DNA of 64,000 bases from Amphiscolops sp. MND2022. Lineage: Eukaryota. The notes beneath the pieces were generated by a model, which was not told where the DNA came from, did not search any database, and saw nothing but the letters and a program-made list of their open reading frames with translations. Where the stretch lies: positions 24,676,001 through 24,740,000 of the forward strand of contig OZ076415.1 in NCBI GenBank assembly GCA_964187785.1. The letters are read 5' to 3'. Position 1 is the first letter of the stretch. Each line of letters opens with the position of its first letter. Below, piece by piece: positions 125 through 36,700 of the stretch. The position numbers and the translations under genes are program-made.

Positions 125-3101
125 TTATATTTATTCATATGAGGAACACATATCTGACCGGGACGTAGAAAGGAGCTTTACAGCTCTAGGGTATACGCCC
201 CCAAAAACAAAAAAAGAGTTGTCAGCTCCAATAAAGGAATATACTAGGAATTCTGGAACTTTAACCAAAAATGAGGTTAAAAGTTGTTTCACTGTCAAGG
301 ATGTACAGTTCTTTGAAATTCATTATGAACTTTTTTAACATTATTTTGTCAATATTGTTTCCGAAACTAGGCAATAGATCGTTTTTCATTAAAAAGTTGT
401 AACATTTTGTAACTCTCCCGGCTAATGAGTTTTTGGCTGTAACAGTTCGCGAAAAATGGGGTCGAATTAGTCCAGCAATTTGAGATCGAGTTGTCCGTAG
501 GAAAGCTTGATTTTGAAGATCCAATGATCTAATTGTCGAAAAACCATAAATTTGAAATAGAGTCTCTTTGAATATTTCTTCAACGTAAAGTTCAAAAACT
601 GTTTCTATTTTATGTTTCATAAACAAGTCAGACACTGTATCGCTACGTTTTCTGAAGAAAATTGTTCGTATAATTCGTTTTTGCATTAATAGAATCTCAT
701 TCAGCACTGAATGTCTTGTACCGCCGTATATGAGCAAACCGTACAGTATAATTGGTTTTGCATATGCTTGATAAAACCTTAAGAGAGCTTTCCGGGAAAA
801 ACAATAACGTGCCTTGTAGACCAAACCATTAAATTTAGCTAATCTTTTCTGGATACTCGCTATATGGCTATGAAAATTCAATCTTTTGTCGATACTAACG
901 CCTAGGTACTTCAATTTATCTACAATGTCTATTTCGCCTGCTAAACCCTCAAGTTCGTCAATTTCCGTTGCGGTTATTGTTTTTCCAAAGGGTAAAATTG
1001 TACACTTAGATACGTTGACAGTCATTTTGTTAACCGAAAACCATTGATTCATGCTTTTTAGATCCAATTCTACATCTTTTGTTACATTTCTACAGCTTTT
1101 AGAAGTTACAATTGCGGTATCATCAGCAAATAGAACCATGCTTGAATTCTTACATGTTTCAGGCAAATCATTTATGTATATCAAAAACAAGAGTGGGCCC
1201 AAGATTGAACCTTGTGGAACTCCACAATCAATGCTCCTCGATGAAGACTTTTGATTACCCGAAAATACGAATTGTTCTCTGTCAGATAAGTAATCTCTGA
1301 GCAAATTTTCAATTTGACCGCGTAGTCCAAAGCTATTTAGTTTTTTAATAAGAAGATTGTGATCAACGGTATCAAAGGCTTTTTTAAAATCAATGAAAGC
1401 TGCCAAGCCATAGTGTTTTTTGTCAATTGTTTTTCTCATAAATTCAGTGATTTCTGCAATTGCATGTGCACAAGAAAAATTTTCTCTAAAACCGAATTGT
1501 TTGGGAGTTAGTAGTTTATGCTTCGCCAAAAATTTTGTTATACGTTTGTGAATGAGTTTTTCAAAAATTTTGCTCAGCGAAGTCAAAAGACTAATAGGGC
1601 GATAATTATCCGGTAGGGAAAAATCACCTTTCTTCAAAAGCGGAAGAACTTTCGCAATTTTCATAGACTTAGGAAACTTTGAATCATTTATACACTCATT
1701 GAAAATATTGGCTAAAAATTGACTAATTGAAGATGCAGCAAGCCTCAAAAGTTTATTAGAGATGCCATCATGACCAGAAGAAATTTTGTTCTTTAGGTGT
1801 TTGATTATACTGTAAACTTCAGATGCATCTGTCTCGAAGAGAGCGAAAGTTTGAACAGGTCCGTCCGCGTCGAAGTCAACATTGGGTAAGGATTCACTAC
1901 ACTCATTTGCAAGTTTTTTTCCAATACTTACAAAAAAATCATTAAATTTCTCAACGTCTACTTCTCTTTGTTTTTTGGTTTCTTTCCCACAAAAATGGTT
2001 AAAACAGTTGAATAATTCTTTTGAATTGCACACGTTTTTGATTTTTTTGTCATAATAGGATCGTTTAGCTTTCCGAATTTCACTGGTGACCGAGTTACGG
2101 AGTTTCTTGTAAACTAACTCGTTCTTTTTGCTAGCCTCTTTAACGTAAGAGGCATGCGCTTTATCACGTTTATGAATCAAAGATTTGATATGGTTTGTTA
2201 CCCAATTTGATCTTTTCTTCGTAGCATCAAAAGTTTTGTGTGGAGCATACTTTTCGGAAGCTGAATTCAGAACACCGGTGAGGTACTCTAATTTGCTTTC
2301 AACTGTGTCACACTGACATTTACGAAGTGCTTGATCTATGTAGAACAAAAATTTCAAATGATGATCTTCTTTAGAAAAGCCGGAAAAATCACGAAACTGA
2401 ATAACATCATTATCGTTGCAATGATTTGTGTCATATAAAATAGGAAATCTCAATGCATAGTGGTCACTGATTTTGTATTTGAGAGTTTCAACTTTTATTT
2501 CTTTAGTTGATATGCAGAGGTCAATGCATTTCGAAGTTGACAGAGTCTCTCGAGTAGGCTCTTCATTCTGCACAGATAGTCCGAATGCTTCCAAACAAAT
2601 TTCTAGTTTTTTGGTTTTATAGTCTAGATTATCAAGAACATCAATATTGAAGTCTCCTACGAGTATGGAATCTCCTTTCATTTCAAACAAATCAGTTAGA
2701 AGACAATCCATTTCATCAAAAAAGACAGCTTTAGCATCTGGTGGTCTATAAATCAGGCAGACATTTAGCGGACCTAAAGCGTCCCGATGGATTGTGACAA
2801 TTACGTGTTCAATATTAGATTTACATTTGGTTGTAGTGTAATTCACGTCTTCTCTCGCGTAGAAAGCTAAACCGCCACCAAGTTTGTTCAGTCTATTTGA
2901 TGTTTCAATTTCAGAGTAGTCGTCGAGCCAATAAAGGTCAATAGGGTCATTTTCTGTCAACCAAGTTTCACAAAGGCAAATCAACACAGGTTTTACTTCA
3001 AAATCATCAAAAGTAGTAATTAACTGGTCATGATGGCACCTAAGTGAACGTATGTTCATGTAAAAAATGTCTGAGGTTTTAAAAGTTTCCACAGATTCCA
3101 T
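125..3101 (-). mobile_element. CR1/L2-like LINE copy including 3' UTR; 5' boundary undefined
   Basis: ORF2 is followed on the minus strand by about 130 nt of UTR containing a GAGCT-GTAA-AGCTC hairpin (173-186) and AATAAA (130-135). No ORF1 is visible upstream. Confidence 0.65.
261..3101 (-). CDS. Non-LTR retrotransposon ORF2 (APE/EEP endonuclease + reverse transcriptase), CR1/L2-like
   Basis: Uninterrupted 946-aa ORF. Endonuclease motifs: YMNIRSL, CLCETWL, IYRPP, GDFNID, SDH. RT motifs: YRPISLL, FIDFKKAFDTVDH, GVPQGSILGPLLFLIYINDL, FADDT, KYLGV. Confidence 0.95.
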   Translation of the reverse strand: MESVETFKTSDIFYMNIRSLRCHHDQLITTFDDFEVKPVLICLCETWLTENDPIDLYWLDDYSEIETSNRLNKLGGGLAFYAREDVNYTTTKCKSNIEHVIVTIHRDALGPLNVCLIYRPPDAKAVFFDEMDCLLTDLFEMKGDSILVGDFNIDVLDNLDYKTKKLEICLEAFGLSVQNEEPTRETLSTSKCIDLCISTKEIKVETLKYKISDHYALRFPILYDTNHCNDNDVIQFRDFSGFSKEDHHLKFLFYIDQALRKCQCDTVESKLEYLTGVLNSASEKYAPHKTFDATKKRSNWVTNHIKSLIHKRDKAHASYVKEASKKNELVYKKLRNSVTSEIRKAKRSYYDKKIKNVCNSKELFNCFNHFCGKETKKQREVDVEKFNDFFVSIGKKLANECSESLPNVDFDADGPVQTFALFETDASEVYSIIKHLKNKISSGHDGISNKLLRLAASSISQFLANIFNECINDSKFPKSMKIAKVLPLLKKGDFSLPDNYRPISLLTSLSKIFEKLIHKRITKFLAKHKLLTPKQFGFRENFSCAHAIAEITEFMRKTIDKKHYGLAAFIDFKKAFDTVDHNLLIKKLNSFGLRGQIENLLRDYLSDREQFVFSGNQKSSSRSIDCGVPQGSILGPLLFLIYINDLPETCKNSSMVLFADDTAIVTSKSCRNVTKDVELDLKSMNQWFSVNKMTVNVSKCTILPFGKTITATEIDELEGLAGEIDIVDKLKYLGVSIDKRLNFHSHIASIQKRLAKFNGLVYKARYCFSRKALLRFYQAYAKPIILYGLLIYGGTRHSVLNEILLMQKRIIRTIFFRKRSDTVSDLFMKHKIETVFELYVEEIFKETLFQIYGFSTIRSLDLQNQAFLRTTRSQIAGLIRPHFSRTVTAKNSLAGRVTKCYNFLMKNDLLPSFGNNIDKIMLKKFIMNFKELYILDSETTFNLIFG

Positions 3102-3850
3102 CCTTATTGCAAGCTGACAAAATCTGAAGAAAAACGCAAAGTTCAGAGAATTAAGGAAGTTCCTCTAATCTCTTTGGCTTCGATGTTCTGTTACATACCA
3201 CCGAAGCATCGAAGTACTCAGAATGTGTTACCGGTGTAAGGACGTCTTGCATTTCAACTGGTTTTAACTTTTTTTGAATATTTTGTACGGTCCATGTTAA
3301 CAAGACCATGTGGTGTTGTATAAGGAGTCGCCTTGTTGAACATAGGCGATAAGGTTTCATGAATTTAAGCGCACTGAAGACTCATGTATTTAGATTCAGG
3401 TATAGCGGATGACGACTTCGTTAGCACAACAGGGCCTTTTGCAATATTTGTGACCATGCTATGTTTGGGAAACTGCATTAAAAACATTAGATTGAACCCT
3501 TTTTTTATTTCAGAAAAGGACGCTAGTCTGGTCATGCTGAAACATTAGTCGCAATCTTGACTCGATTCTCACTACGATTGTAGTGATGTAGCACGATCGT
3601 ACCACGAAACGTAGGCTAGCGTTCATATATTGGTTGTGTGTAAGCAACACAAAATTGATTGCCTTGTCAAGCCTAATTGAGACCACTACCGTGCAAAATA
3701 GCACTATTGCTCCGCCGGGCTTTTAAAATGAGATAGGTTGACATTTTTGAAGCAAATTCAAGCCACTATTTTCTATGATCATTCAGTTTCATGTCCGAAG
3801 TTAGGAAATGTATAACCTCTTTTGTACTCTGCAATTCCAGGAAGATGACA

Positions 3851-4047
3851 TCTCAACGTGGACATAACAAATTCACTGGCATTTTCTAGACTTCTTTCAC
3901 AATTTTCTCACGTTTTCTCCAAAAGTGCACGCTCGTCGCATGTTCATTCAATGAACATGCGACGAGCGTGCACTTTTGGAGAAAACGTGAGAAAATTGTG
4001 AAAGAAGTCTAGAAAATGCCAGTTAATTTCTCATGTCCACGTTGAGA
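3851..4047. repeat. Near-perfect long palindrome (fold-back)
   Basis: Symmetric about position 3949. Perfect 74-bp arms span 3875-4023 with a 1-nt centre, and the symmetry extends to 3851-4047 with 3 mismatches. Confidence 0.95.
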
Positions 4048-6269
4048 AGTTTCTTATGTCCACGTTGAAAGTTTCAAACTACACCTACGCGCTATAGTAC
4101 TTGGTTTGGTTGTATAGAAATTTTCGCCAGCACCGGTATAATTTTAAGCCCATGTTAGTTTTTCGTTAGAATTTGTTGTACGAATGGTAGCATGAAGTCC
4201 GTGATTGATACGAGCTGCCACGATCTTACGACTATAGGCGTGATAGTACTGTGATGGTGAATCTGGGAAACAACCGTGCATTCCTGTACAACGGCATATC
4301 GAATCCGAAGCATGAACTTATCTAATCTGATAACATCTGTTTTTTGGTTGCAAGAAACGAAACATTTAATAGCTCCTTCTTGGAGACCTTCAAAAACCCT
4401 AAATGAGTATATATTCTAGTCCTATGTTGATTATAGCATGGTCTTTCCTGTTTACTGCTATAAACTGCCCAGTGCAAAATATCTTGAAACACTTGCCAAG
4501 ATCTTGCTTATTCTTACAAATTTCCGTTTACTGTTGAGAGCCTGAATGAGATTTTGTTCTTACTTGAAGATTTTGACGAGAATCTTGGTAATAGTTTTGT
4601 CAAGAGTGTCAGGAAATTAAATAACTGGCGAAACAAACAACAATCTTGTTTACAATTACTTCACTATTGATCGAACTACCCGCTACAATTTCATTCTTCG
4701 CAGTGGTTTTAATAGGACAATACAAAGTATTGACTTTCACCATAGTTGAGGCTGCTGGAATTTTTTACATGCTGTAGGCCTACAGGCAGTGTAACGTTTT
4801 GGTAAAACCTAGGAAATTCAGTAAGGTTCCGGTGGTAACTCTTGTAGAAATACACTGAAATTTTCACTACTGCATTTAAACTTGAATATAAGTCATTTCA
4901 TTTCAGACTGAATTACGCTGTGTTCACACTCTGATCTTCTCACCGACTGATCTGATGTGATTACCGCTCCTCAAATTCCACGCAAAACATGGCGGTAGTT
5001 TGCCATTACGAATTATTACGCGACAGAAGTTATTTTGCATTGAAATGGCTGTAAAACTGATAGTAACTTTTATTTGCTTTCAAAATTGGAACTGTTTCCT
5101 TATGAAACTTGCAAAACTTAAAGACTCAAAATTTCCGCCGAAACTTTGATGAATTCTGATAAAAGTCAAACCCAAACGGGAAATATTTTTGCATGAAAAC
5201 TTACGTAACAGTTTTGGAATTATGAAAATTGCTGGCAACAATAAAAAACAAACAGTGCAATCAGTTTTAAGGGGCAGAACTTGATATCTTTGTTAATAGC
5301 GTGAACGCCGGTTGGCGTCGGTTGTGTGTGTTTCCATCCACTTTGTTAGCTTCTCATTTGCAGTTCTTGGCACAATCGTACATAGTCTTGGTGCTCTTGA
5401 TAAGACGCTTGCGAAAATTCTTACCAAGGTTTCACAAAAATGCAAGATTCTTATCAAAAATTTCAAGAATTTTCACACTGGGTATCATAGAATGGTAATT
5501 CGTGTTTGTGATTACAAGCTGAGTATAGGCTGGGTAATTTTGCTTCCGTCTTCGATCAATCGGATTCCTGCCTAGTAGTGCAAAATAAACTTGGTTTTCA
5601 ACCAATGTGAAAATGTCACTCTGTAAATAGAGACAATATCACATTTTACGACTTTAGCATTTTATTTTAATTCGAATCTTGATGACTTATGGTGATCGCC
5701 ATGATCAGTCTTGAACGAAACACATAATTCCTTGAGAAGTGAGAACTACTGTGATCAAGTAGTTAATGCTTTAAAACCTAGTGGTTCAGCTGTTCTGTAA
5801 CATTTGTCCTAAAAGATCAAACTACATTTCCTTATTTTTTTTATAGGCAAGGTCAAATATGCCCTCAATCGCCGGTTTCATCATGAGATTGATAAGTTGA
5901 CAACATTCAACATTTGACTTTCTTTTCATCCCTTGCAACCAGAGGAGGCTAAAAGCTTTATGACCATATTTGACAATAGAGAAACACACTTTCAACTGTT
6001 ATTTTTCAAGATTGGCACCCTTGATTGGATGAATACTCATAACCAAACCCCTTTTGTGTTCGAAAATTACGTTTTGACTTTGATTTCAAAAGGCTTGCCT
6101 TATTTGTCTGTTGAATGTCACTTTCAATTGAGATTTCTATACGGAAATAATTTTTATACTTTTTATATGCCACCCAGGAATGTAAAAAAATACGTATAAA
6201 TGATACTTTTGAATACAATATAATTGCTTTAAAAATAATTTAGTATGTTGTCTCACATTGTACGAGGGA

Positions 6270-6410: not shown

Positions 6411-7624
6411 CGTTATTTCGTCCTTTTTCCGATGAGAACTGTCGAGTCCGGGTCAGGGCTGAAGTCCTCTTCTTGGACTTGGAGAAGTGAATCTCTTCCT
6501 GAAATGAAACCATTCACCATTGCGGATTTAGAAGTACTGGGTTTTTGGTTCTTATGACGTTCAAATTCCGGTTTCCTCTCTTTACCAATCTCTGTTCTCA
6601 GTGCAAAGAGGATTCTTGAAATACATTTTAATTTTCTTTCTGAAACCACCATTTATCTCTGCGAAGTCTCTCATTTATTGTCTTGATCTTTCATTCAACT
6701 TTCCGTTATCTCCATGATTTTTCATCTGGCATACTGTGTTTTATGTATTTAACTTAACCATAATTTTGTGAATTTTTCGTTTTTGAACGCTGTTCCAGGT
6801 CTTTATTTCTAAGTATTCCGTGGTGTACTATATATTCTGCAATAAATTCTTAAACGCTTTCGGTAGTATGATTGGTTAAAAATAGCGCCTCCGACAGTCC
6901 TGAAATATTATTTGCAGAAACCCACTAATCCTTGTTTCTTCGAGGTGAAATTTGGAAAGCGCCTGCAAAATCTAGTGAATTTTCTTGGTTTGGTTTTTCA
7001 GCCTTAGGTAATGTTCCAAATTCTTTTTGTCATTTTACACACTTTATGATCTTACCTGCTTTGATACATTCTGGGAAGTTGTTCGCCGGCCTCTCTATGG
7101 TTTGTTTCCCGACGAACTCTGGGCCACCAAACATCTGCGGCTTCTCTGAACAGGGCATATAAGCCAGCATGCCCAAATTGAATCACCGTCAGCATCTTTA
7201 GTTTCCCACATGTCTTTGGGTATAACTAGTCTTTCATCAAGATATAATAATTTGTTCGAATCTAAACTAAATTAATTGAACGTTTCCCTACAAGGAGGGA
7301 AAAGGCGTGCATTTTGGGCAGTATCACGGTTCGGGAATAATCTGATCATATTCTGCAATTGTTTATCCTTTTCATAATTCGCCTGAGCGTACACTCTGCT
7401 AATCTCGAGTTCGCGGTTATTGAGTTGTTTCTTGTGTTTGAATTAGTTTAGACGCTTTTATATGTTTTGGCGTTTTGCAACACACTGTCGTTCTGCTGAG
7501 ATACTGTGAAAACCTGCGTTCTTGCTTCTGATTGGCTAATAGCTCTGCTTATCAATTTTGTTGTTTGCATTATTTTCGCCGTAATCACTTCATCTAAATC
7601 CTTTGTAAATTCACTAGCAACTGT
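6410..7624 (-). pseudogene. Decayed Ty3/Gypsy integrase region (host element, downstream of the BEL insertion)
   Basis: Frameshifted remnants: YLDERLVIPKD, FGHAG...VWWPR...C (zinc finger) and LDFAG (integrase core start). The frame joins the RNase H fragment at 16982 when the BEL element is removed. Confidence 0.75.
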
Positions 7625-8007
7625 TAAAAGAGTGTTATAGAATCCGGTCTCTACATCTCGTTTTTTAGAGAGAAAGCAACTGAATATTGTATTGTTCTCG
7701 TGCCAATAATGAATATCAACTGGTGTCATATGAATTCAGAAAGCTACAATGGTATAAATGAAGAAACTGTCAAAATAACAAAAGTTGTTTACTAATATAG
7801 AAAATCAAATTAAAATTTCGAGACAGCAAATTATCGAAAAGAGTATTTTAGTGAAAAACGGAATTTTAGTGATTTTTTACCAAAGACTCCGCCGGTTCTG
7901 AGAATCGAACTCTAGACCTTTGGAATAGAAACCGAACGCGCTAAGCTTTTGTGCTAAAGTGCCTTGTTATTTGTTTATTTTAATCCAATCATATTGTGTA
8001 CACAACA
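7625..8007 (-). repeat. 3' LTR of the BEL/Pao element
   Basis: 383 bp with 5 substitutions versus 16599-16981. On the minus strand it begins TGTTGTG right after the PPT and ends CTTTTA. Confidence 0.95.
7890..7963 (-). pseudogene. tRNA-derived (Arg-TCT-like) sequence inside the 3' LTR
   Basis: GGCACTTTAGCACAAAAGCTTAGCGCGTTCGGTTTCTATTCCAAAGGTCTAGAGTTCGATTCTC: A-box-like element, TCT anticodon-like loop, and B-box GAGTTCGATTC. Confidence 0.6.
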
Positions 8008-8019
8008 TCCTCCGGGCCC
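8008..8019 (-). other. Polypurine tract of the BEL/Pao element
   Basis: GGGCCCGGAGGA immediately precedes the TGT start of the 3' LTR on the minus strand. Confidence 0.7.
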
Positions 8020-8168
8020 AAGAAGATGTGAATGCAAGAAACATTAGAATTGAAAAGGAAACTTTTTTTGGAAAACGGTTTACATGGATTTTCGATGATG
8101 TACATGTTACATTTTATTCATGTTAGGTACGATTACAAGAGAGAACAAAAACGGAGAGTTATTACAGA

Positions 8169-11100
8169 TTAAGTAAGATTGGGGGAATCGGGGGATGGAA
8201 GAACGGGTGCGAGTTTGACAACGGGTCGAATGAGGTTTCCTGTTGCGGTTTTCAGTTCTGCAGAACGAGCGACAGCGTCGGTACCGTAGTTCAGCTTGAC
8301 CACACGTGCAAGTGGGTAATGTCCTCGTGGACTCGTAGGCTCCACAATCCAGACAAGGTCCCCAATCTTGAGATCTTGATCTGGTTGGGCTGACCACTTC
8401 GAACGGCGGTTAAGCGACGGAACGTAATCTTTTAGCCAACGGTCCCAAATAGCATCTGAGTACGCTTGCGCACGTGCGTAGCGTTTCCTGTGGTCGAAGT
8501 CGGCTCTTTGGTGTGATGGCATTGTGGAACCCGCGGTTCCCAACAGGAAGTGGTTTGGTGTCAAGGCGTCAAAATCCGTAGCGTCGCAGCTGACGGGCAC
8601 CAGTGGGCGGGAATTGAGACTCTGTTCTACAAGACAAAAAGTAGTTGTTAATATCTCGTCGGTTAGGCGACGGTTTCCAAGAATTGCGTAAAAAACGTGT
8701 TTGAAGCTCCTGACAATTCGTTCCCAGACACCTCCGTGGTGGGGAGCACTGGGAGGATTGAACTTCCAGTGATTCCGTTTTTTGACCAAAACTTCAGACA
8801 GAATCTGTTGATTCCACGCTGACACGTTTTGTAGCAACTCCTTTTCACTGGCGATGAAATTGGTTCCGTTGTCAGACCACAAAACAGATGGGACGCCCCG
8901 ACGGGCAGCAAATCTTTCGATTCCCATAACACAGCTACTAGTGTCCATTGACGGGACAACTTCAAAATGGACAGCTCTGGTTGTTAAGCAAGTGAATAGG
9001 AATCCCCATCGTTTTTCGGTTGATCTTTTAACAGCTACGTAAAACGGGCCGAAATAGTCAATTCCGGTGTTCGTAAATGGACGCTCTTGAAATGCCAGTC
9101 TTTCCCGAGGAAGGTCGGACATTATCGGGTTGAGAGTTTCCGCTCGACGTTTGCGGCAAGTGACACATTTGGAGACAATTGACCTCAGGGCGGTTCTAAG
9201 CTTGACGATGGCGAACTGTTGCTGCACCAACGCCCTCATGTAGTCCACACCCTGATGGCAATGCGTTTCATGGAGCTGCTCTAAGTACAAGCGTACGGCG
9301 GGGTGACGGCTGTCCAGTAAAATAGGGTGTTTTGCGTCGAAGTTGGAAACTGTTAGTTGTTTGGTCCGACCGGTTGCTCGCAGTAGGCCTTGAGGCCCAA
9401 TGAAAGGGGAGAATTGGGAAAGTTTAGAAGAGTTGCTGACGGGGGATTTTTTCAGCAAGCACTTCAGTTCGACGGGAAATGACTCTTGTTGGATGAGATA
9501 GAAAAGTCTCAATTCAGCATTTCGCATTTCATTTGGGTCAGTTACTAAACCAGAGTCGGATCGGTAACCTTCGTTTTTTGGCAGTAGGCGCAAAATGTAA
9601 GCAACAACGCGCAGAAGTTTCTCGTACGAGCTGTACTTCTGCCACTCGAAAGTTGTCGCGATGCCGATCACGGTTGCACTTAAAGCTGTCAAAAATTCCG
9701 AAGTTTCTTGTTCCGAAAGGGGAGTGTCCGACTTTTTCGCTTTCAATTTGACCTCAACTTCTTTTGGTGGTTTGAACAGCCAGTCGTGTGTTCGCAAGAA
9801 TGAAGGACCTTTGAGCCAAGGACTGTCACGAAGTGAGTTGGCTGAAAGACCACGCGTTCCTGCATCAGCGGGGTTGTCACTTGATTTAACATAGTTCCAT
9901 TCATCCACTGTTGTTAGTTCCAAGATTTCGGCAACGCGGTTGGTTACAAACACCGGTTGCTTCTCTAATGAATGGAGCCACTGAAGGACCGTCGTGCTGT
10001 CCGTCCACATGAAAGTGTTAGCAACTCTGACCGTTAGCGCATTTTCAATTTCTTTTCGGAGTCGTGCAGCAAGCAACGAGGCTTGTAGTTCAAGCTTCGG
10101 GATCGTAAGGGCTTTCATGGGTGCTACTCTGGCTTTCCCAAAGACGAAAGCTAACTCTGTTGTATAACCAGTCGTGGTGTCAACTTTTCCTCGTAGAAAG
10201 GCGACGGCGCTGAAGACATCTTGAGAGCTGTCACCGAACATATGAAGCTCCAAGGTTTCAACTCGCGCTTCGAAATAGCTCCGTGGGATTTGAATTTCGC
10301 TCAAAGTTGGCAGTTCCTTGCTCCATTCGTTGAACTTAGTTACGACTTCGTCTGGCAGATCGTCATCCCACTGTTGACCACTTAATCTCCAGATGTCTTT
10401 CAACAACAGTCTTGCTTGGACGGTAAACGGAGCAACGAGTCCAATGGGATCGTAGACAGCTGAAACTACGCTCAGTACCACTCGTTGAGTAAGTTTCTTG
10501 TTCGTAGCAGGGCTCGTTCCCCGACTTACAACGAAAGTGTCACAGGCATGATTCCATTTAAGTCCCAAGACATGTGAGGACTCGTCTGGTTTCGGAATCA
10601 CCTTCTCATCGGTCGGTGCTAGTTCGCCGCTTTGTTGCAGTTCGGCTGAAAGGTGATTAATGTTGGAAACAAACTTAGTTAGATTAAAGCCACCTTTTGC
10701 AAGCAGTGCCACCAAGTCCTTTGCTTTGTTACTGGCTTCTTCGACCGTAGGGCTTGATTCCAAGTAGTCGTCCATGTAAAAATTGCGGTGAACGCTTTTC
10801 GCTGCTTCAGGGAAAGCGTCTTGGTTATCGCTACCAGTACGTTTCAGTGCGTAGTTCGCACATGTTGGTGAGTCCTTCGACCCGAAGATGTGCCGGACGT
10901 ACTGATACACAGCGATTTCTGCAGCTGGGTCTTCCCGCCACAGAAAACGAAGTGAAGGTTGATCTTTTGGTATGACTCCAACTTGAAGAAACATACCTTC
11001 GATATCGGCAGAGACGGCGTACTTGTGTTGACGAAAGCGGATCAGTATGTGTATCAAACTTTGTAGCAAGTCCGGTCCGGTTAACAAGGCGTTGTTCAAA

Positions 11101-14100
11101 GATTGGCCCTGGAACCTTGCTGCGCCATTCAATACTCTGCGAACTTTGCCAGGTTTGTGCGGGTGCACTACAGGATGGTGTGGCAGGTACCACTCGCGGG
11201 GTTGGTCTAATTTGAAACAGTCGCTTTTGTCAACTTTGGTGATGTAACCTTTGTCGAAGTCGTCGTGAATTGTTTTGGCATAAAGTTGTTTCAATTCAGG
11301 ATCTTTGTCGAGGCGACGTTCCAACGATTTTAGCTGCACGAGCGCGGAAAAGTAGTTATTCGGCAAACTACTGTCAGCTTCGGTCCACAACATTCCCACA
11401 TGGTATCGGAGTTGGTCGGTAAGTTCGGAGTCGAATTCCTTGTTAGAAGCAACAGCTTTAAAACAAGTTGAATAGAGACCTGAGGACGAGGGGAGCGGTC
11501 CACTCAAAACCCAACCCAACGGTAAACGAACGGCAACTGGAGCATTTTTGCGGTCGGAATCAAAATACTCCAGCGGGCGGATCGAGTGGAAAACATCCTG
11601 ACCTAGGATCATTTCAACATCGGCGTAGCTGTACTTTTTCAAAGAGATTGGTTGCAAATGGGGGTACTTTGTTTTCAAAAGTTCGACATCGATGGTGTCA
11701 GTTCCGACTTTGAGGTCTTCTCTGACATACGGTTTAACAACAAAGGGAGAGCAAGAGCCACCCGAATGAACGGGTGTCAACTTAAGCTCCACCAGTTGCG
11801 TGTCTACGACTTGGTTGGAATTTATGCCATGGACAGTAAGCTTGGTCGGGGTGCCGTGTACGTTCAACTTCGTTGCCAGATTCGCTGAGATCCAGGAATG
11901 GCTGCAGGCAGAATCACACAGTGCTAGGACTTTTTCGCTTTTGCCGTTCGAGTGAAGTTCAACTTCCGTTACTTGTAATAGGCCTTTGACTTCAGCAACG
12001 GAAGGCATGCCTGAGCTCTCGTATGATCTTTCGTTTTTCACTGACGTTCCGACGCAACCAGATGTTTCAGTTTTGTCCTTGTTCACGCTAGTGACTTTCT
12101 TAGCAAAAATCCTGTCAGCTCCGTGCAAGAAAGTGTTGTGTGAACTCCCGCATCCATCTTTTGTACACTTGCGGGGTTGCGGGCACTGGCGAAACGTGTG
12201 GTTCTGGTTGAAGCATGAAAAGCAAAGCTTATTGTCAGCTACAATTCTTGCTCTTTCTGTGGGTGTTTTTCCTCTGAATGCTGGACATCTCCACAAAGGA
12301 TGTTTTTCTTTACAAGCGGCACAAGTGTTGGGCGGTTTGCCATTCTTAACTTTGGCGCTGGCACTTTGTTGACTAGAAGTCGTCGCTGCGAAAACCTTGG
12401 AAGCAGTCTTGGTCTTAGTTACAGTCACGTTGTTACTTTCTTCAGGTTTCGCTTTGTTCGGCAGAGACTTCATGCGCTCATGCATTTCGGCTTTGTCTTT
12501 GAGCCAGTCATTGAAATCAATGAGCGTCGGTCTGTCCAAAGTTCGCCTCACTGTGTGCAGTGACCATGCTTCTTTCATGTTTGGCGGAAGCTTTTGAACG
12601 GCTTGTCCAAGCAATGATGCGCTTGACAGGTCTTGGACGTAGTTTAGAGATCGGAAGACCCCGACTAGAGAACAAATTACTGCTGAGTAACTGATGATGC
12701 TCTCACTGTTGTGCATCTTCACGGGTGGAAAGTTTGCCAACTTATCCAGATAGGCAGTTACTACAGCCTGTGGCTGTCCAAACTTCCGTTCTAGTGTCTT
12801 TAGGGCGTCTCTATACATTGCTCCGCAGTAAGCAAATTCAGCGATAGCAGTTTTTGCTTTACCTGTAACAAGAGTCTTGAGGTATGTTAACTTGACGTCA
12901 TCGGTGAGTGGGGCTGAGTCTATGGCACTTTTGAACTGGCCAAACCATTCATGCCATTGTATCGGGTCACCATTATATTGTGTTAGTTTCCACTCTGGCA
13001 GATGATCTTTCTTCGTTGAAGCTAACAACAAGGCAAGATCTTGTATCGTGAATCCGGTTGTACTTGGTTGCATAGTCGTTGACGTTCCGGCTGGTACAAA
13101 GGTAGCGGCTGTTGGATTAAGAGAAGTCGTCGGTTGTGCTGTACTGTACAAAATTGGCGTTGTAACGGTTGCTGGGGGTACATAATAAACAGTTCCACCA
13201 GTGGTAACGGGTACGGTCGGAGCGGCATAGGTTGGCGTGTGAGGAACCGGTATGAATGTAGGTGCCGTCGGCTGTGTCGGGGATGGAATTGTTGTTACAA
13301 TCGGTGCGGTGGTAACGGTCGGGTTCGGGAAGGTCCAAGCGGACAAGTTGGGGAGGATGTGATTCACCGGCATTGTGAATGTGGGCATACGTGATGTCGT
13401 TTGTGGCGTTAAAACTTGTGCATTAAAGCTTCTAGTTTGGGTCGGGATGATTGTCGGTTGAACTTGTTGTTGTACTGTGACATCCGAGGTTGAAGGTCCG
13501 ATATTCCCAAAGTTTTGCGCTGTCAATGGAGGAGTCTGAATTTGTACCGCAGGAGTGTGATTTAAACTCATTGATGGAACGGTAGTTGTTGGTAGTTGTA
13601 CTGCCACGCTTGTTTCATTGGGATCACCTGGTGCGAAAATCGGCTGAGAGACATTAACCGGAGGTTGCTGAGATGGGATCAAAGCGGTAGTATTTGCGGC
13701 AGAAGTCGCTAGACTTGCAGTCACCGCTGTTACAGTCTCATGTTGAGTCGTGGTAACGATTGGCGAGTTGTTAACCCAGTCACTAACTCGGCGCGTTTCG
13801 CTAGCGTCTGTTGTTCTGCTCAACCGCGAGAGAATCTCATGAGCATCTTCGTTAGCTTCAGATGGGTCTTCTTGAAGTTCAAGTTCAATTAGATGCGCCT
13901 CTGCAAGTCGTTTGCGGTTCTCTTCTTGCAGTTGATCAAGTTCCAGCTCTTGCTTTTGTTTAGCCAGTCGTAAAGCAGCTTCGTTTTGCCTTTCTACTTC
14001 TTCTCGCTTGTGTTTGGCAATAAGCAAGTCTCGTTGGCGCTGACTTGAAGTTTTCGACGCTTTGCTGCTTGAAACTTTGCTAGACTTAGTCTTCACGGTG

Positions 14101-14516
14101 GCATCTTTGACTGAAGTTTGCGAAGAATTATCTGTTTTGGGACATTGATCGATATATTCCCTTGCGCTTCTCAAAATTCCGTCATTTTGTATGCTCGTGA
14201 CGTTCAACCATTTTTCTAGGTCTGCAGTGACAGTTGCCGGGTCGTTGGTTTTCTTGGCAAGCTCGAGTAGCTGTTCGTTCTTAGCGAAAGCTTTTGTCAT
14301 AGCCTCTTCGCAAGAAGTGACCAACCGTTCGACGCGGACTCGTCTATCGGCATTGTTTACTGCTTCTGTCACGTCTTTTTGATATCTGTTCAGGTCGGCT
14401 TCGGCTTTCGCGCGACTGTCATATAACTTTTGCACCTTTTCGTGAATGGGGTCGGACATGACGTTGTCAAATTTAGGGGATCGGTGGGCGTTTATACTTT
14501 TTCGGACGGCAACCAA
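8169..14516 (-). CDS. BEL/Pao gag-pol polyprotein (first ATG at 14459)
   Basis: Open 2115-codon frame. DUF1759-like gag (YNGDPIQWHEWFGQF, KLTYLK), three Cys/His knuckles, protease LCDSACS, RT (PHHPV, ADIEGMFLQV, FYMDDYL), RNase H (LHMFGDSS, KARVAP, IPKLELQA, WTDS), integrase (HPILL, H..H..CVTC, GIDYFGP, SDNGTNF, GGVWER) and a DUF5641-like tail. Confidence 0.95.
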   Translation of the reverse strand: MVAVRKSINAHRSPKFDNVMSDPIHEKVQKLYDSRAKAEADLNRYQKDVTEAVNNADRRVRVERLVTSCEEAMTKAFAKNEQLLELAKKTNDPATVTADLEKWLNVTSIQNDGILRSAREYIDQCPKTDNSSQTSVKDATVKTKSSKVSSSKASKTSSQRQRDLLIAKHKREEVERQNEAALRLAKQKQELELDQLQEENRKRLAEAHLIELELQEDPSEANEDAHEILSRLSRTTDASETRRVSDWVNNSPIVTTTQHETVTAVTASLATSAANTTALIPSQQPPVNVSQPIFAPGDPNETSVAVQLPTTTVPSMSLNHTPAVQIQTPPLTAQNFGNIGPSTSDVTVQQQVQPTIIPTQTRSFNAQVLTPQTTSRMPTFTMPVNHILPNLSAWTFPNPTVTTAPIVTTIPSPTQPTAPTFIPVPHTPTYAAPTVPVTTGGTVYYVPPATVTTPILYSTAQPTTSLNPTAATFVPAGTSTTMQPSTTGFTIQDLALLLASTKKDHLPEWKLTQYNGDPIQWHEWFGQFKSAIDSAPLTDDVKLTYLKTLVTGKAKTAIAEFAYCGAMYRDALKTLERKFGQPQAVVTAYLDKLANFPPVKMHNSESIISYSAVICSLVGVFRSLNYVQDLSSASLLGQAVQKLPPNMKEAWSLHTVRRTLDRPTLIDFNDWLKDKAEMHERMKSLPNKAKPEESNNVTVTKTKTASKVFAATTSSQQSASAKVKNGKPPNTCAACKEKHPLWRCPAFRGKTPTERARIVADNKLCFSCFNQNHTFRQCPQPRKCTKDGCGSSHNTFLHGADRIFAKKVTSVNKDKTETSGCVGTSVKNERSYESSGMPSVAEVKGLLQVTEVELHSNGKSEKVLALCDSACSHSWISANLATKLNVHGTPTKLTVHGINSNQVVDTQLVELKLTPVHSGGSCSPFVVKPYVREDLKVGTDTIDVELLKTKYPHLQPISLKKYSYADVEMILGQDVFHSIRPLEYFDSDRKNAPVAVRLPLGWVLSGPLPSSSGLYSTCFKAVASNKEFDSELTDQLRYHVGMLWTEADSSLPNNYFSALVQLKSLERRLDKDPELKQLYAKTIHDDFDKGYITKVDKSDCFKLDQPREWYLPHHPVVHPHKPGKVRRVLNGAARFQGQSLNNALLTGPDLLQSLIHILIRFRQHKYAVSADIEGMFLQVGVIPKDQPSLRFLWREDPAAEIAVYQYVRHIFGSKDSPTCANYALKRTGSDNQDAFPEAAKSVHRNFYMDDYLESSPTVEEASNKAKDLVALLAKGGFNLTKFVSNINHLSAELQQSGELAPTDEKVIPKPDESSHVLGLKWNHACDTFVVSRGTSPATNKKLTQRVVLSVVSAVYDPIGLVAPFTVQARLLLKDIWRLSGQQWDDDLPDEVVTKFNEWSKELPTLSEIQIPRSYFEARVETLELHMFGDSSQDVFSAVAFLRGKVDTTTGYTTELAFVFGKARVAPMKALTIPKLELQASLLAARLRKEIENALTVRVANTFMWTDSTTVLQWLHSLEKQPVFVTNRVAEILELTTVDEWNYVKSSDNPADAGTRGLSANSLRDSPWLKGPSFLRTHDWLFKPPKEVEVKLKAKKSDTPLSEQETSEFLTALSATVIGIATTFEWQKYSSYEKLLRVVAYILRLLPKNEGYRSDSGLVTDPNEMRNAELRLFYLIQQESFPVELKCLLKKSPVSNSSKLSQFSPFIGPQGLLRATGRTKQLTVSNFDAKHPILLDSRHPAVRLYLEQLHETHCHQGVDYMRALVQQQFAIVKLRTALRSIVSKCVTCRKRRAETLNPIMSDLPRERLAFQERPFTNTGIDYFGPFYVAVKRSTEKRWGFLFTCLTTRAVHFEVVPSMDTSSCVMGIERFAARRGVPSVLWSDNGTNFIASEKELLQNVSAWNQQILSEVLVKKRNHWKFNPPSAPHHGGVWERIVRSFKHVFYAILGNRRLTDEILTTTFCLVEQSLNSRPLVPVSCDATDFDALTPNHFLLGTAGSTMPSHQRADFDHRKRYARAQAYSDAIWDRWLKDYVPSLNRRSKWSAQPDQDLKIGDLVWIVEPTSPRGHYPLARVVKLNYGTDAVARSAELKTATGNLIRPVVKLAPVLPSPDSPNLT

Positions 14517-14887
14517 ACAATTAGGTTTGGATACTGTTCAGGAAAAGTTTGGTGGCAGAAAGAACGGTGTTTATCGGTGACAACACTGTGTTTGTAAAGC
14601 GCTTCAACGAAAAAACTGGCGATTTTTTTTTTGTTTTAAGTTAAAAGTAGTCACAGACTACGAGGACGGAACACGATAAACTCAAAGTCGCGTCGACTCA
14701 ACGCGGTCTCAGTTGACGGTGGTGCGGGTGAGGGACGAAACGTTTTTTCAGAGTATCAACCAGTCAGTCAAGACTGGACACAACTCTGAAAAAAGAAGGA
14801 AGAGCTGAAGAAACTTCAACCGATCAGTGAAGTTCGGACACTGTCTCAACAGCTGGAAGGAGCGGGGGGGGGGGTTGTTAACTGAGA

Positions 14888-15497
14888 TTAAAAAGAGGCA
14901 GCGGCTCTCTTCTCAGCGTTACGGGCACGCTTATTTGACCGTTTGGGTCGGCTCTTATCAGTTATTGAGGATAGTGCGTTCTCTTTACGGAGCAGAAAGT
15001 ACAAATTTTTCAGTTCAAGCTCAGGGCTTTGATGCAAAGCTTTAAATTTTTTCAAAAGGTCGGCATCCTTCTGTTTTTTTCGGAGAAATAAAGTCTTTGA
15101 CTATATTGAATACTTTGATATCAAGATCGGTTTCCAATGTTTTCAATGATTCAAAGATCTCGGGGGTACGAAAGCGGTGGCAATACACCAGAGCACTGAG
15201 TTTTTTCTGAATGCTTTTCAAAATTTCAATCAATTCGGACACTGATAATGCACAGAAGTTGTTACTATCGTGACGAGAAATGCTGTTATTTAGGACATCG
15301 TGCCAAATAACAATGTTGTTTTTATCTTTCAGATCTTTCGAAAGCAAATTTTGGACAATTTTCTTCGAATTTTTCGTCAACGGATTAAGACTTAGGCCCG
15401 GGATGGGATAAATTTTGTCATTGAAATGTTCTTTTTCATCGGGAGTTAACGTTTCTATTGCATGGTGCAAAGAACTAGCGGCCAATATGAAAACCAT
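14888..15497 (-). CDS. Accessory ORF (~203 aa after one frameshift), SGNH/GDSL hydrolase-like
   Basis: MVFILAASSL...IPGLS...IVIWHDVLNNS... then, after a shift in the 7-T run at 15074-15080, KKQKDADLLKKFKALHQSPELELK...KRAAASF* with the stop at 14888. S, G, N and H candidates occur in SGNH order. Fold assignment is by eye only. Confidence 0.55.
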
Positions 15498-15649
15498 GTG
15501 TGTTATTTTTTTTACAATACTTTGCGGAATCAGAATTTTTTCTCTCAAAATTTTTTTCTTTCGGCTACACGGATTATCAAAGGGCGGTTACAACAATTTT
15601 TTTCAAATTGGAAATTGGAACAAGGTTACATTGAGTTTTCGGGACAGTT

Positions 15650-16420
15650 TTTTTTACAAGAAGCAAAAAATGAAAAAAGCACTCAGGTTTCCAAATTCTT
15701 TGCCGAGTTTTAATCAATAAATAGGATTTGGACCCCTTTTTGGGTTCTGTTTAAAAGAAGGGTATCAAATTTTTGTGCCTTTTAGGAAAGTGGTACTTTG
15801 GATTTTTTCATCAATCTCCCTTTTCAAAGTTCGTAAGAAACTGGAAGTTTTAAATAACACAAAAAGTTGTCTCAAATTTGACAAACTTTGCTATCTCGAA
15901 GATTAGCACAATAATGTTTCGTCGGGTTATTGGTTTTTTCAAGAAACGCTTTGCAAATAATTAATACTGAAGCGCAAAGTTTCCAAAGTTTTTTCTTTTT
16001 TCTCGGGTACTCACGACCATGAATTCATATTCGGGTTTAGCCTTCAACGGGTCTGCAATGATGAATGTCTACTGTTGAGGTGAATCTCTGAAAAAGGAGT
16101 TCCAGGGATAGCGTTTTGAGATCCATAGGTATCATCCTTTACAAAGATGGACGGCTTGCAGATGTTAAACCGCCTTTTGCCCGAAATTTTTATCAACTTT
16201 TCTGTTCCTGATATTTCTTTGGTGAATCAAAACACATCCAAAGTGAAGCCACACTCACAGACGTTGATTCCCGAGACTTTGAATGGAATTAAAGCATATG
16301 AAGTACTTTGGAAGGTTTGGATTTAAACACAATTAGGTGATAATGCGATTGGTAAACAGGTACAGGAGCACGCGATCAGAAACTCATGTGTACTGGTGAA
16401 ACGTATTGAGGTAAACTCAT
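15650..16420 (-). pseudogene. Decayed accessory ORF of unknown function (~250 codons) in the BEL 5' leader
   Basis: Stitched translation from the ATG at 16420: MSLPQYVSPVHMSF*SRAPVPVYQSHYHLIV...VWLHFGCVLIH...YLWISKRYPW...FIIADPLKAKPEYEF...HYCANLRDSKVCQI*DNFLC...YPSFKQNP. Multiple stops and frameshifts. The 3' boundary is approximate. Confidence 0.5.
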
Positions 16421-16580
16421 TCATGATAAACGAAAGAAATTTCTTCCTCAATGATTTGAGCCCAGAATTGGCCTAATTCGGAGCCATGAACAATATGTTT
16501 ACCATAATTATACTTCTGAACCGGAAGCAACAGAAGGGTAAAACGTATCTTCAAAAAATTAAACGAACGATGAATCTCGT

Positions 16581-16598
16581 GCCTCTCTATGGCCACCA
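16581..16598 (-). other. Primer-binding site of the BEL/Pao element
   Basis: TGGTGGCCATAGAGAGGC directly abuts the 5' LTR and is complementary to a tRNA 3' end ...CTCTCTATGGCCA-CCA. A GGCC-type acceptor suggests tRNA-Ile (inference). Confidence 0.8.
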
Positions 16599-16981
16599 TA
16601 AAAGAGTGTTATAGAATCCGGTCTCTACATCTCGTTTTTTAGAGAGAAAGCAACTGAATATTGTATTGTTCTCGTGCCAATAATGAATATCAACTGGTGT
16701 CATATGAATTCAGAAAGCTACAATGGTATAAATGAAGAAACTGTCAAAATAACAAAAGTTGTTTACTAATATAGACAATCAAATTAAAATTTCGAGACAG
16801 CAAATTATCGAAAAGAGTATTTTAGTGGAAAACGGTATTTTAGTGATTTTTTACCAAAGACTCCGCCGGTTCTGAGAATCGAACTCTAGACCTTTGGAAT
16901 AGAAACCGAACGCGCTAAGCTATTGCGCTAAAGTGCCTTGTTATTTGTTTATTTTAATCCAATCATATTGTGTACACAACA
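16599..16981 (-). repeat. 5' LTR of the BEL/Pao element
   Basis: 383-bp direct repeat of 7625-8007, followed on the minus strand by the TGG PBS and flanked by the TSD ACTGT. Confidence 0.95.
16864..16937 (-). pseudogene. tRNA-derived (Arg-TCT-like) sequence inside the 5' LTR
   Basis: GGCACTTTAGCGCAATAGCTTAGCGCGTTCGGTTTCTATTCCAAAGGTCTAGAGTTCGATTCTCAG: A-box TAGCGCAATAG and B-box GAGTTCGATTC. Confidence 0.65.
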
Positions 16982-17400
16982 ACTGTAAATGTAAACCAAT
17001 CGTTGAACATTTGTTCCCATTTGATTACTGCAACACTTGAAGGGAATGAGTGTCGTGATAAGTAATCCGCCATTCCTAATATTCTTCCCGTAGTAGGTAC
17101 AACGGTGAATTCGAATGGAAGTAGTCTATACACCAATTTTGTTGAACGACTAGAAAATGTTTTGTTCGCTTTGCTCGCTTTCAGTACTTTTGTTAAAACT
17201 CTGTGATCAGATACTGTTTCTAATTCATTTCCGTACACATACTTATTAAAATGATCAATTGACCATATTACTGCTAGTAATTCCATTTGTTAAATTGAAT
17301 TTTTTGCTTCGAATTCCGTTAAAAATCGAGATGCGTACGCAATTGGTTTCCAACTTTTTTTCGTTGTTATAGTACTGCCCTTAGCGTCTCATTTGGATTC
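16982..17400 (-). pseudogene. Ty3/Gypsy RNase H fragment (host element upstream of the BEL insertion)
   Basis: WKPIAYASRFLT...ELLAVIWSIDHF..YVYG...SDH...LLPFEF...GMADYLSRH. Confidence 0.85.
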
Positions 17401-33758: not shown

Positions 33759-36700
33759 ATTCGCACCGTATTACACTGTTAACCTCACTTATCCTAGCGA
33801 TGCTTTAAACAAGCCTACCAAATTTCTAATTTTTGAATCTATTTGTCAGTAGTACATATTTGCTAGCAATTTTTAAAGTTTCCGCCCATGTTTTCAAATT
33901 AGAAAGGAATAATTACTGACTGGAGGTGCGTATTTTTTTAAAAAAATTGAATTGCGATGTTCCAAATTTGAACCCAATAGGCAGAGGTTCTCCCACAGAA
34001 TTCAATCGAACTTTTATCAACTTAGTTTCCTGCATTATTTATTTGCAGAGATTTTGAACTTTTTCGGAAATGATGAAATTGACACCAAATTATTCAAAAT
34101 CCCAAAATATTCTAATTATCAAGTTTTTTATGCGATTTCTGTACAGTTTTCAAATATTTTGGTGGGTTAGCAAATCCAGGAGGAACGAGCCAGCTAACCA
34201 TGACGCTTTTCGAAAAGGGCACCAAAACTTTTGTTACAAATGATCCATCCTAAAATGATTCATTCTAAGCTAGCCAAAATTCCGAAATTACTTTTTTTCT
34301 CCTTATAAGAGCAATATTTGTAATTTTGAATTTTTTATCAAGTTAGAACTTCAAATTAGAAGTTAAGTTTTCAACTAAAACCAGCTATACAGTATGCTCT
34401 TTTGAATCGAAAATCAAAAAATGTGGATGAAAGGTGTCTTAAAATGCAGTTTTTGAATGATTTTTTTCCGGTAAAAAATTCACTGATTTCAACAACTAAA
34501 AGCCCGTTTCAGTACCCCCTATTAAAATGAAATCAGTAGAGCTTTGTTTAAAATGAAACATCTCAAAATGACCACGAAGTAGTTTAAACATGCAAAATGT
34601 ACATTACGAGAGTGAAAATGAACAGAATTTAAAACAACGAATCAACCCACTCCACAGTGCGCTTTTTTGAGGGGAACTCGGGAGTCTTTTGTTCGAGACA
34701 TGACTCAAAATAACAAAAAAGTAGTCAAAAAACGACCAATTTGTTACATTAGTTTTACTTTTTAACAATCGTCATAATTTTAAGTAGCCAACAATGTCGA
34801 TGAAAGCTCTCTAGTATGCTTTTCAGAAGGATATATTTGATTTCTAAATTCAAAATTTGCCCGAAATTTACTCAAATTATGAATCTTTTCCTACGTTTTC
34901 AGGTGTTTAATGCCTTAAAATGCCCTGGAAGCATTAAAAAAGCCCGAAAAAGGATAAATAAAAAGAGCAACGGTGAGCAGTCGGACCCTTGTGACCTTGA
35001 GCAAGTGACTTTGAAACCACAGCTTCAAGTCCACTATTACTTGACCACTTGGCTGCAAATATGGTACCATAGCTTGCTACGGGGATATAGTATCCAAAAG
35101 AGCGCCGGCTTAGAAAAGCAGAACTCCTTATCCAGTGTCCACCCCGCGGAATTGGGGAAATTAACTTTGTTCCCCTTTTTATGCGACTCTCCTCACATTA
35201 ATCAATCAATTAAGAACAAAACTGTGACTTCTACCGTCTCATTGTTTTAGATTCGATTTTATTGACAAGTTATTGTCATTCTCAAGTTCAATGCTCACTC
35301 GAAATTAGCTGTAGACAAATACTTTAAAAAAGCAAAAAAAACTCTAAGACATCAAAATGTGAGATAGGGAAACAACTAAGATAGGTGTGTAACTTTTTTG
35401 TGAACGTTCGAGGCATCCGTCGTACAACATTTGGCAAGAGAGCAAGAGAGCTCCATTTAGAATTGACAAAAAAGTAAACATTTTTGAGTACCTCATACAA
35501 ATGTTACTATTTTGTATATAAGAAAAAATGTTGCCGTTATCAAAACGTTATAACATCGCAGAAAGTTTGCCTACCATGGCTAAATGCATTTAGGGCATAA
35601 AGAGGGAGAAAATTGAGGCGTTTCATGTTGAAAGTGATCGATTTTCAACGTCGAATGCATCATTTTGGAACATATGAACCGTCTCTTAATTCAATTAGGA
35701 TATTCCAAAATTCCATAGTTTTTCCTCATCAGAAATTGCAGGAATTCGTGTTGTTGGTTAGCAATCAAACTAATTTATTGCGAAAACGACGACCGTTTGA
35801 ATATTCGGATCGCACACGCTTGCAACACAGTATCGTTCTAAAATAATGCAACTCCATTACTCAAAATGACAAAATTGAAAACCAAATGTCTCCTAAGCTA
35901 TCACAAATGGACAAAAATTGTCAGTTAAAAATTGTCAGTCAAAATAAACATAAAAATCTCCAATTGTCTATGTTTGGTACTCTAAGAGAGATCTGATTGA
36001 TTTTGATTGACAATGTTACCGTAGATTTCGGTATCGGTATTTGCACCGTATTACACTGTTAACCTCACTTATCCTAGCGATGCTTTAAACAAGCCTACCA
36101 AATTTCTAATTTTTGAATCTATTTGTCAGTAGTACATATTTGCTAGCAATTTTTAAAGTTTCCGCCCATGTTTTCATATTAGAAAGGAATAATTACTGAC
36201 TGGAGGTGCGTATTTTTTTTAAAAAATTGCGATGTTCCAAATTTGAACCCAATAGGCAGAGGTTCTCCCACAGAATTCAATCAAACTTTTATCAACTTAG
36301 TTTCCTGCATTATTTATTTGCAGAGATTTTGAACTTTTTCGGAAATGATGAAATTGACACCAAATTATTCAAAATCCCAAAATATTCTAATTATCAAGTT
36401 TTTTATGCGATTTCTGTACAGTTTTCAAATATTTTGGTGGGTTAGCAAATCCAGGAGGAACGAGCCAGCTAACCATGACGCTTTTCGAAAAGGGCACCAA
36501 AACTTTTGTTACAAATGATCCATCCTAAAATGATTCATTCTAAGCTAGCCAAAATTCCGAAATTACTTTTTTTCTCCTTATAAGAGCAATATTTGTAATT
36601 TTGAATTTTTTATCAAGTTAGAACTTCAAATTAGAAGTTAAGTTTTCAACTAAAACCAGCTATACAGTATGCTCTTTTGAATCGAAAATCAAAAAATGTG

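Follow-up and report, generated by a model that had tools for sequence, protein, structure and literature searches.

The 64,000-nucleotide stretch of DNA that we analyzed (the window) carries on its minus strand a complete BEL/Pao LTR element (7625–16981), recognized by paired LTRs, a TSD, a PBS and a gag-pol gene. The 5′ LTR (16599–16981, minus) and the 3′ LTR (7625–8007, minus) are each 383 bp long and differ by 5 mismatches (98.7% identity). Their termini read TG...TA rather than TG...CA, a boundary backed by the 5-bp TSD ACTGT, copies of which lie at 7620–7624 and 16982–16986. Directly after the 5′ LTR is a PBS that begins TGG (16582–16598, minus), with a primer that is presumably tRNA-Ile-like, and a short purine-rich, PPT-like tract precedes the 3′ LTR (8008–8019, minus). 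Together, the paired LTRs, TSD and PBS identify an LTR retrotransposon. Between the PBS and gag lie, all on the minus strand, a leader of 1.1 kb (15498–16581) that has 13 upstream ATGs but none opening a long ORF, a separate gene for a protein of predicted SGNH fold (15497–14888), and a 428-nt spacer free of ATG (14460–14887). No second ORF was recognized by eye in the six frames of the leader, and neither motif nor Rfam searches revealed a hammerhead ribozyme near the SGNH-fold gene.

Gag-pol is a single ORF (8169–14459, minus) of 2096 aa from the ATG at 14459. Pfam matches above the cut-off were DUF1759 (521–661), Peptidase_A17 (1350–1514), Integrase_H2C2 (1749–1799) and DUF5641 (2018–2111), with Asp_protease_2 (863–918) and RVT_1 (1159–1286) falling below the curated cut-off. 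The domain order, Gag–PR–RT–RH–IN with Pao-type Pfam domains, places the element in BEL/Pao, and its near-identical LTRs mark it as young. In Gag, a long Thr/Pro-rich low-complexity run (~12950–13800, minus) separates a charged helical region at the N terminus from DUF1759. Near 11408 (minus), in the protease–RT interval, the window gag-pol lacks 38 residues in frame compared with P0269, its nearest relative among the gag-pol matches listed (92% identical, 156 members). This gap appears to be a second lesion of the window copy; with it and a frame break in the SGNH-fold gene, described below, the copy is probably inactive or mis-assembled.

Both LTRs contain a tRNA-like stretch with a box-B-like motif. 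The one near the 5′ LTR start, on the sense strand (16864–16937, minus), scored 30.1 bits against the Rfam tRNA model (gathering score 29), and the one in the 3′ LTR (7890–7963, minus) scored 22.2 bits, below the gathering score; the D arm holds two of the five LTR differences. One reading of the stretch is a SINE head, another a polymerase III promoter within the LTR. Cassandra elements, which carry 5S rRNA in the LTR, offer a parallel, and our literature search found no published case of tRNA-like sequence in BEL LTRs. Elsewhere in the window are an open LINE-type ORF of 967 aa with endonuclease and reverse transcriptase (261–3164, minus), upstream of which no SGNH family member was found; a perfect-spaced inverted repeat of 101 bp (3848–4050); near-identical tandem duplications at 33759–37031 (period ~2.28 kb) and 44998–46944 (period ~1.03 kb); and an ORF with rve and Integrase_H2C2 (60264–62015, minus), which represents another LTR element and is partly repeated at 62879–63178.

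The SGNH-fold gene is broken in the window copy. Its ORF starts at the ATG at 15497 and halts at 15042 after 151 aa (piece 1, 15042–15497, minus), while a second frame runs on to a stop at 14888 (piece 2, 14888–15073, minus) and supplies the block V His, the closing helix and a Lys/Arg-rich tail. Comparison with relatives puts the frame break at a run of T (15074–15080). When a profile of natural relatives was run against the 1639 stop-to-stop segments of the window, piece 1 matched profile positions 4–145 (E 1e-63) and piece 2 matched 137–204 (E 2e-14); no further segment reached an E below 0.1, and hence no other copy of the gene was found in the 64 kb. By motif register, the block I Ser8 is encoded at 15476–15474, the block II Gly34 at 15398–15396 and the block III Asn70 at 15290–15288; the block V His155 is visible in the second frame at 15034–15032, and the family alignment adds His66 at 15302–15300 and Cys106 at 15182–15180 (all minus). 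The original prediction, made from this DNA alone, had placed the element, the ORF, its break and four SGNH blocks at these sites, and the LTRs, TSD, PBS and profile matches to both pieces agree with it. It had also proposed a corrected protein of ~203 aa with a basic tail; unbroken relatives are mostly 202–205 aa, in keeping with that length, and the tail extends five residues past the stretch it quoted. As for the blocks themselves, Ser, Gly, Asn and His are conserved as predicted, but block V has the His without the Asp. Of the two adjacent serines in block I, the first, Ser8, is the most likely nucleophile.

We considered whether the T-run might be a site of programmed frameshifting and rejected this, as full-length relatives are encoded by one ORF and breaks go in both directions. 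Of the 120 close relatives listed, 33 end early; the frame moves in one direction in 8 of them and in the opposite direction in another 8, both groups breaking within a common A-rich stretch, and 17 are unclassified. Such opposite shifts argue for slippage or sequencing error, not recoding. Structural work was carried out on P0001, a natural unbroken relative (202 aa, 94% identical), and the window pieces were kept unjoined.

The layout between this gene and gag offers one lead on expression. Among the 197 acceptor-like YAG sites in the element, three of the four most pyrimidine-rich lie in the spacer (14882, 14853 and 14786), an enrichment with a Fisher p of 4e-4 uncorrected for spacer composition, and one site has a branch-point-like motif. 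The best upstream donor-like site, at 16502, is weak (score 1.7), and the absence of ATG from the 428-nt spacer is not significant (447 of 5000 shuffles). As a lead only, gag-pol RNA might be spliced so as to skip the accessory gene.

A search with piece 1 accepted 265 proteins among 291 candidates. The 120 close relatives listed come from ENA contigs (119) or JGI (1), and 70 of them are 200–209 aa long. A second search, with 59 distant members, gave 123 proteins, and a profile search of 1.84 billion representatives returned 783 clusters (50% identity) with E at or below 0.001; of the 150 top-ranking ones, the longest is 282 aa and none shows a stable fusion to gag or other domains. In total, 373 family proteins were collected, 244 of them full-length, with a median pairwise identity of 37%. 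Family members came without an informative name or precomputed Pfam domain, and no SGNH-clan family appeared among the Pfam families listed for the window, for 71 members (25 of 29) and for 59 members (25 of 44). Sequence-profile searches of the PDB likewise gave no SGNH or other meaningful match. ESM Atlas features assigned the window piece to Lipase_GDSL-type clusters (0.89–0.92) and gave nothing usable for P0059. No relatives were found in bacterial genomes, archaeal genomes or phages, and none of the searches brought up esterase sequences from CR1, RTE-X or Penelope elements.

Close members form a clade of 98 leaves on a long stem (support 0.999, stem 0.36). Across 90 of them, 16 of 178 columns are invariant, compared with 0.46 expected at a uniform rate, in a database that lists open frames only and so favors intact copies; allowing rate variation among columns raises the likelihood by 263 units. 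These sequence patterns indicate constraint at the protein level. Family members are basic, with a median pI of 9.9, and in 203 of the 244 full-length ones the tail carries a net charge of at least +6. P0001 has no transmembrane segment, its top 19-residue hydropathy being 1.05.

A first model of P0001, built from 71 close sequences, had a pLDDT of 75.6; an AlphaFold model from 84 diverse sequences reached pLDDT 95.3 and pTM 0.86. The latter has five strands (3–6, 29–31, 62–64, 100–105 and 128–131) plus a free C-terminal helix. In a fold search against 48,161 PDB representatives, SGNH/GDSL enzymes came out on top, led by 7ddy (rmsd 3.7 Å over 159 residues) and 3p94 (3.4 Å over 155), both at Z 11.7. 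The best matches are GDSL/acetyl-xylan esterases, with OatA at Z 11.5 and the Oskar OSK domain (5a4a) at Z 8.7. Foldseek with the P0001 model retrieved 3p94 at E 3e-4, and a repeat fold search was concordant. The 50 rows listed comprise esterases, acyltransferases, GDSL lipases, Oskar OSK, phage tail proteins and a few entries whose titles name no function; we take these last groups to be SGNH members as well. With the first model, a viral structure library gave no match at E 0.001 or better and a few GDSL rows. The ZfL2-1 esterase chain is absent among the rows listed in every PDB fold search, which its domain-swapped crystal form may explain. The predicted structure is a three-layer flavodoxin-like fold with five parallel strands, as in the SGNH superfamily. 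Thus the SGNH fold that had been proposed from motifs is borne out by structure prediction of a relative and by three fold searches that agree.

Across the 244 full-length members, Ser8 is present in 240, Gly34 in 233, Asn70 in 222 and His155 in 236, and all occur together in 205; these catalytic-block residues were placed from motif register and spacing rather than from a superposition of coordinates. The Ser-to-Asn and Ser-to-His spacings are 62 and 147, compared with 63 and 147 in thioesterase I (PMC10792757, Table 2), and the block table of the same paper makes the nucleophile the third residue of block I. Position 9, next to Ser8, alternates between Ser and Cys. The acid of the canonical DxxH motif is missing, with D or E at His-3 in 4 of 236 members, and block III reads WHD..NN, without Gly. 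Further residues are also kept, namely His66 (234 of 244), Asp67 (228), His76 (225), Arg108 (228) and Glu161 (226). Five solved SGNH structures replace the acid by a main-chain oxygen (PMC10792757), so that a Ser–His dyad is plausible here, and the missing DxxH excludes the protein from the canonical triad class, not from the SGNH superfamily. By predicted fold and four residues, then, the protein belongs to the superfamily and lies outside the canonical triad class. In ZfL2-1, the H191/S228 pair is conserved only in transposon esterases and is needed for activity (PMC3905857). Here, His66 lies four residues before Asn70, as H191 lies before N195, a match by spacing only; Cys/Ser106 closes strand 4; and both are present in 200 of 244 members. 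Judged from this spacing, His66 and Cys106 may occupy the site of the transposon-specific His/Ser pair of LINE esterases.

Is the gene tied to BEL elements beyond the window? A gag-pol search gave 361 matches, and contig sizes of the 120 listed were compared with those of the 120 listed of 265 accessory-gene matches. Among the matches listed, 5 of 19 gag-pol rows with at least 63% identity shared a contig size with a close family member, versus 0 of 32 rows below 63%. Two of the shared contigs are short, at 8,866 and 10,066 bp, leaving 1.8 and 2.9 kb beside both genes; none of 200,000 draws gave two such matches among the four short contigs. Their gag-pol sequences are 69% and 68% identical to that of the window, respectively, and both of their accessory genes fall in the close clade. 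Hence, the two short contigs appear to hold both the accessory gene and BEL gag-pol. Over shared columns of the three linked loci, the accessory gene is 72–76% identical and gag-pol 73–75%. Three matches on large contigs (459–674 kb) were dropped as evidence of linkage, since 0.7–2.2 are expected by chance and a test of co-divergence between the gene and gag-pol gave a negative result (six contig-matched pairs; Mantel r -0.37, equalled or exceeded in 678 of 720 permutations). An equal size of 7,157 bp, pairing a distant member with a 31%-identical gag-pol among the other 67 rows, was also set aside, as the sources differ and the match is compatible with chance (p 0.06).

One of the 373 family proteins, P0257, provides a second line of evidence. 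In it, the accessory gene runs into a BEL protease piece, 57% identical to window 11927–11790 (E 4e-11), as a deletion within an element of the window layout would give. Gene order and orientation are seen directly in the window element only and are implied by P0257. Together, the short contigs, P0257 and the close clade indicate that at least one BEL lineage stably carries the gene. The link of the gene with BEL elements reaches beyond the window copy, by indirect evidence.

In our view, the gene is best explained as a long-kept accessory gene of one BEL/Pao lineage, putatively derived from the pool of SGNH 'esterases' swapped among retroelements. As to function, the ZfL2-1 esterase slowly hydrolyzes acetyl esters and binds anionic liposomes by surface charge, and an Arg-rich motif in ZfL2-1 ORF1p has been proposed as RNA-binding (PMC3905857). 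By analogy, we give an even chance to the view that the protein is a cytoplasmic adaptor which works like this esterase and, while weakly active on esters, connects the RNA of the element with membranes. The Lys/Arg tail would grip element RNA or the particle, and the basic SGNH domain would dock on anionic membranes. The Ser8–His155 dyad could bind or slowly hydrolyze an acyl ester, with a backbone carbonyl, Asp67 or Glu161 substituting for the missing acid. Such an adaptor might aid particle assembly or routing, in germ-line cells for instance. More tentatively, the accessory protein could be read from unspliced RNA, and gag-pol from RNA spliced to the acceptors just behind the accessory stop codon. 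What this model draws on is the predicted SGNH fold, the Ser/Gly/Asn/His set, the constraint, a basic protein with no transmembrane segment and a position inside the LTRs; against a ZfL2-1-like reading stand the lack of a DxxH acid, of the block III Gly and of an N-terminal coiled coil. A bolder version seems to us rather unlikely. In it, the BEL/Pao lineage would have reversed the retroviral layout, expressing a captured SGNH gene from full-length RNA and gag-pol from spliced RNA. The protein would found a new SGNH subclass of hundreds of clusters, passed between BEL, Penelope-like and LINE elements, with a Ser–His pair in a rebuilt site (the WHD motif, His76 and Glu161), and would provide matrix-like membrane targeting that BEL Gag lacks.

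Other explanations differ on whose gene this is and on where its product acts. The gene might belong to another mobile element, as a LINE ORF1 or a Penelope-like gene, and be a mere nested or carried fragment in BEL copies, useless to BEL. Its GC content is 36%, versus 48% for gag-pol. In P0433, a distant family member is preceded in the same frame by a Penelope-type GIY-YIG piece (E 0.004 to PF01541, short of the cut-off), and P0242 ends in what we take to be the AP-endonuclease-like motif of LINE endonucleases, although this end has no Pfam match and no match to the window LINE. P0433 and P0242 may point to other carriers, or may be insertion junctions. The negative Mantel test fits the idea of a carried fragment too, as does the finding that, among the matches listed, no distant member has a contig size equal to any of the 51 closest gag-pol rows. 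Yet close members make up a well-supported clade under constraint (98 leaves, 0.999) and are found with 68–69% identical BEL gag-pol on contigs too short for another full element, and no remains of another element were recognized around the gene in the window. On balance, we find it quite doubtful that the gene is useless cargo. Far less probable is an env-like or receptor-destroying esterase that would promote cell-to-cell spread, as viral haemagglutinin-esterases do. Sialate O-acetylesterases and phage tail esterases are indeed among the fold matches, and the first model matched the ISAV HE complex at Z 6.8, but such rows rank below intracellular and bacterial GDSL enzymes. Moreover, a signal peptide would not fit ahead of a domain that begins at residue 1, there is no transmembrane segment, and the gene lies 5′ of gag, not 3′ of pol.

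Two further alternatives concern what the active site does. The fold may have been kept without hydrolase activity, as an RNA-binding or scaffold module like Oskar OSK, steering element RNA to germ plasm or shielding it from piRNA silencing, with His66, Asp67, His76 and Arg108 forming a ligand or metal site. The absence of a triad acid, the fold match to OSK, the strong positive charge and the near invariance of those extra polar residues all suit such a role. But OSK has lost Ser, Asn and His (PMC10792757), which this family keeps across a median identity of 37%, and true hydrolases outscore OSK (Z 11.7), making a non-enzyme rather unlikely. At the other extreme, the protein could be a real deacylase with a specific substrate, either acyl groups on a host defence protein or the aminoacyl ester on primer tRNA, whose removal would let reverse transcription start. 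LTR retrotransposons need a free 3′-OH on the primer tRNA, the protein is basic enough that it could bind RNA, and the catalytic Ser, Gly, Asn and His are kept. However, elements that do without a tRNA primer carry related esterases (PMC3905857), P0433 abuts a Penelope-type nuclease, and nothing points to a substrate; we therefore hold a dedicated deacylase to be unlikely.

It is puzzling that unrelated retroelements repeatedly recruit SGNH esterases: in HeLa cells, ZfL2-1 can do without its ORF1p (PMC3905857), and any activity of rotifer ORF3 is putative (PMC5408684). The BEL/Pao carrier adds an element class and a new position for SGNH passengers. Since this element has a Gag of its own, replacing Gag cannot be the whole role of the esterase here. 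Sister BEL families that have the gene and others that lack it would make a natural comparison. The protein is small and single-domain and has hundreds of natural variants, and its activity, lipid binding and RNA binding are thus directly testable. A family with no Pfam model and an acid-less active site is also of interest for enzyme classification.

Earlier papers describe SGNH passengers in CR1, RTE-X and Penelope-like elements (PMC3905857), in Athena elements and, as ORF3, in rotifer Vesta LTR elements (PMC5408684), in Ngaro elements (PMC9210276) and in a Helitron (PMC4021074). The original prediction had named ORF1 of some CR1/L2/RTE-X elements as an established home of such domains; this is published, but they are not confined there, occurring also in rotifer LTR ORF3, Penelope-like and Ngaro elements (PMC5408684, PMC9210276). 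Its suggestion of an undescribed system does not hold against these reports, and what we see is a new placement of a known passenger. With CR1/L2/RTE-X ORF1p, as exemplified by ZfL2-1 (PMC3905857), the protein shares the SGNH fold, the Ser–Gly–Asn–His order, a basic surface, an Arg/Lys-rich peptide and a place 5′ of the replication genes. Judging by spacing, it may also share the His four residues before the block III Asn and the Ser/Cys after strand 4. It differs in its carrier, an LTR element that also has Gag, and in having no N-terminal coiled coil: the domain starts at residue 1–3, and the profile at residue 1 in most full-length rows. In addition, the basic peptide is C-terminal here and N-terminal to the domain in ZfL2-1, the DxxH acid is missing, and block III reads WHD..NN as opposed to HxGxND. 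Like Oskar OSK (5a4a, Z 8.7), the protein has an SGNH fold without the canonical triad; unlike OSK, which is a host gene product, it retains Ser, Asn and His.

The Vesta clades of rotifer LTR elements are Ty3/Gypsy-like. The GDSL ORF3 of bdelloid Vesta, Athena and Terminon elements (PMC5408684) is likewise an accessory gene common to several element classes, with no coiled coil or transmembrane segment, and in Vesta it is a separate ORF in an LTR retrotransposon. As described there, however, ORF3 of Vesta follows gag and pol, occurs in rotifer-specific clades and has intact invariant residues, whereas the gene here precedes gag in a BEL/Pao element. That paper also found variation among young copies to be neutral, gag and pol included. 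The Hydro-SGNH ORF of amphibian Ngaro elements (PMC9210276) resembles it as an extra SGNH ORF of putative function in a gag-bearing retrotransposon, but Ngaro is a tyrosine-recombinase element in which this ORF comes behind the recombinase, overlapping other ORFs. The carrier itself is a typical member of BEL/Pao (Belpaoviridae; PMC3118150), with LTRs, a 5-bp TSD, a tRNA PBS and a single gag-pol ORF with DUF1759, Peptidase_A17 and DUF5641. The main text of that survey names env as the sole extra gene and does not use the word esterase, and neither esterase nor hydrolase occurs in the available text of PMC2774666. Across the literature searched we found no description of an SGNH gene in a BEL/Pao element, although Repbase, Dfam or supplements may hold an earlier annotation. 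Compared with the SGNH passengers in that literature, the BEL carrier, the stand-alone position 5′ of gag and the acid-less site are new.
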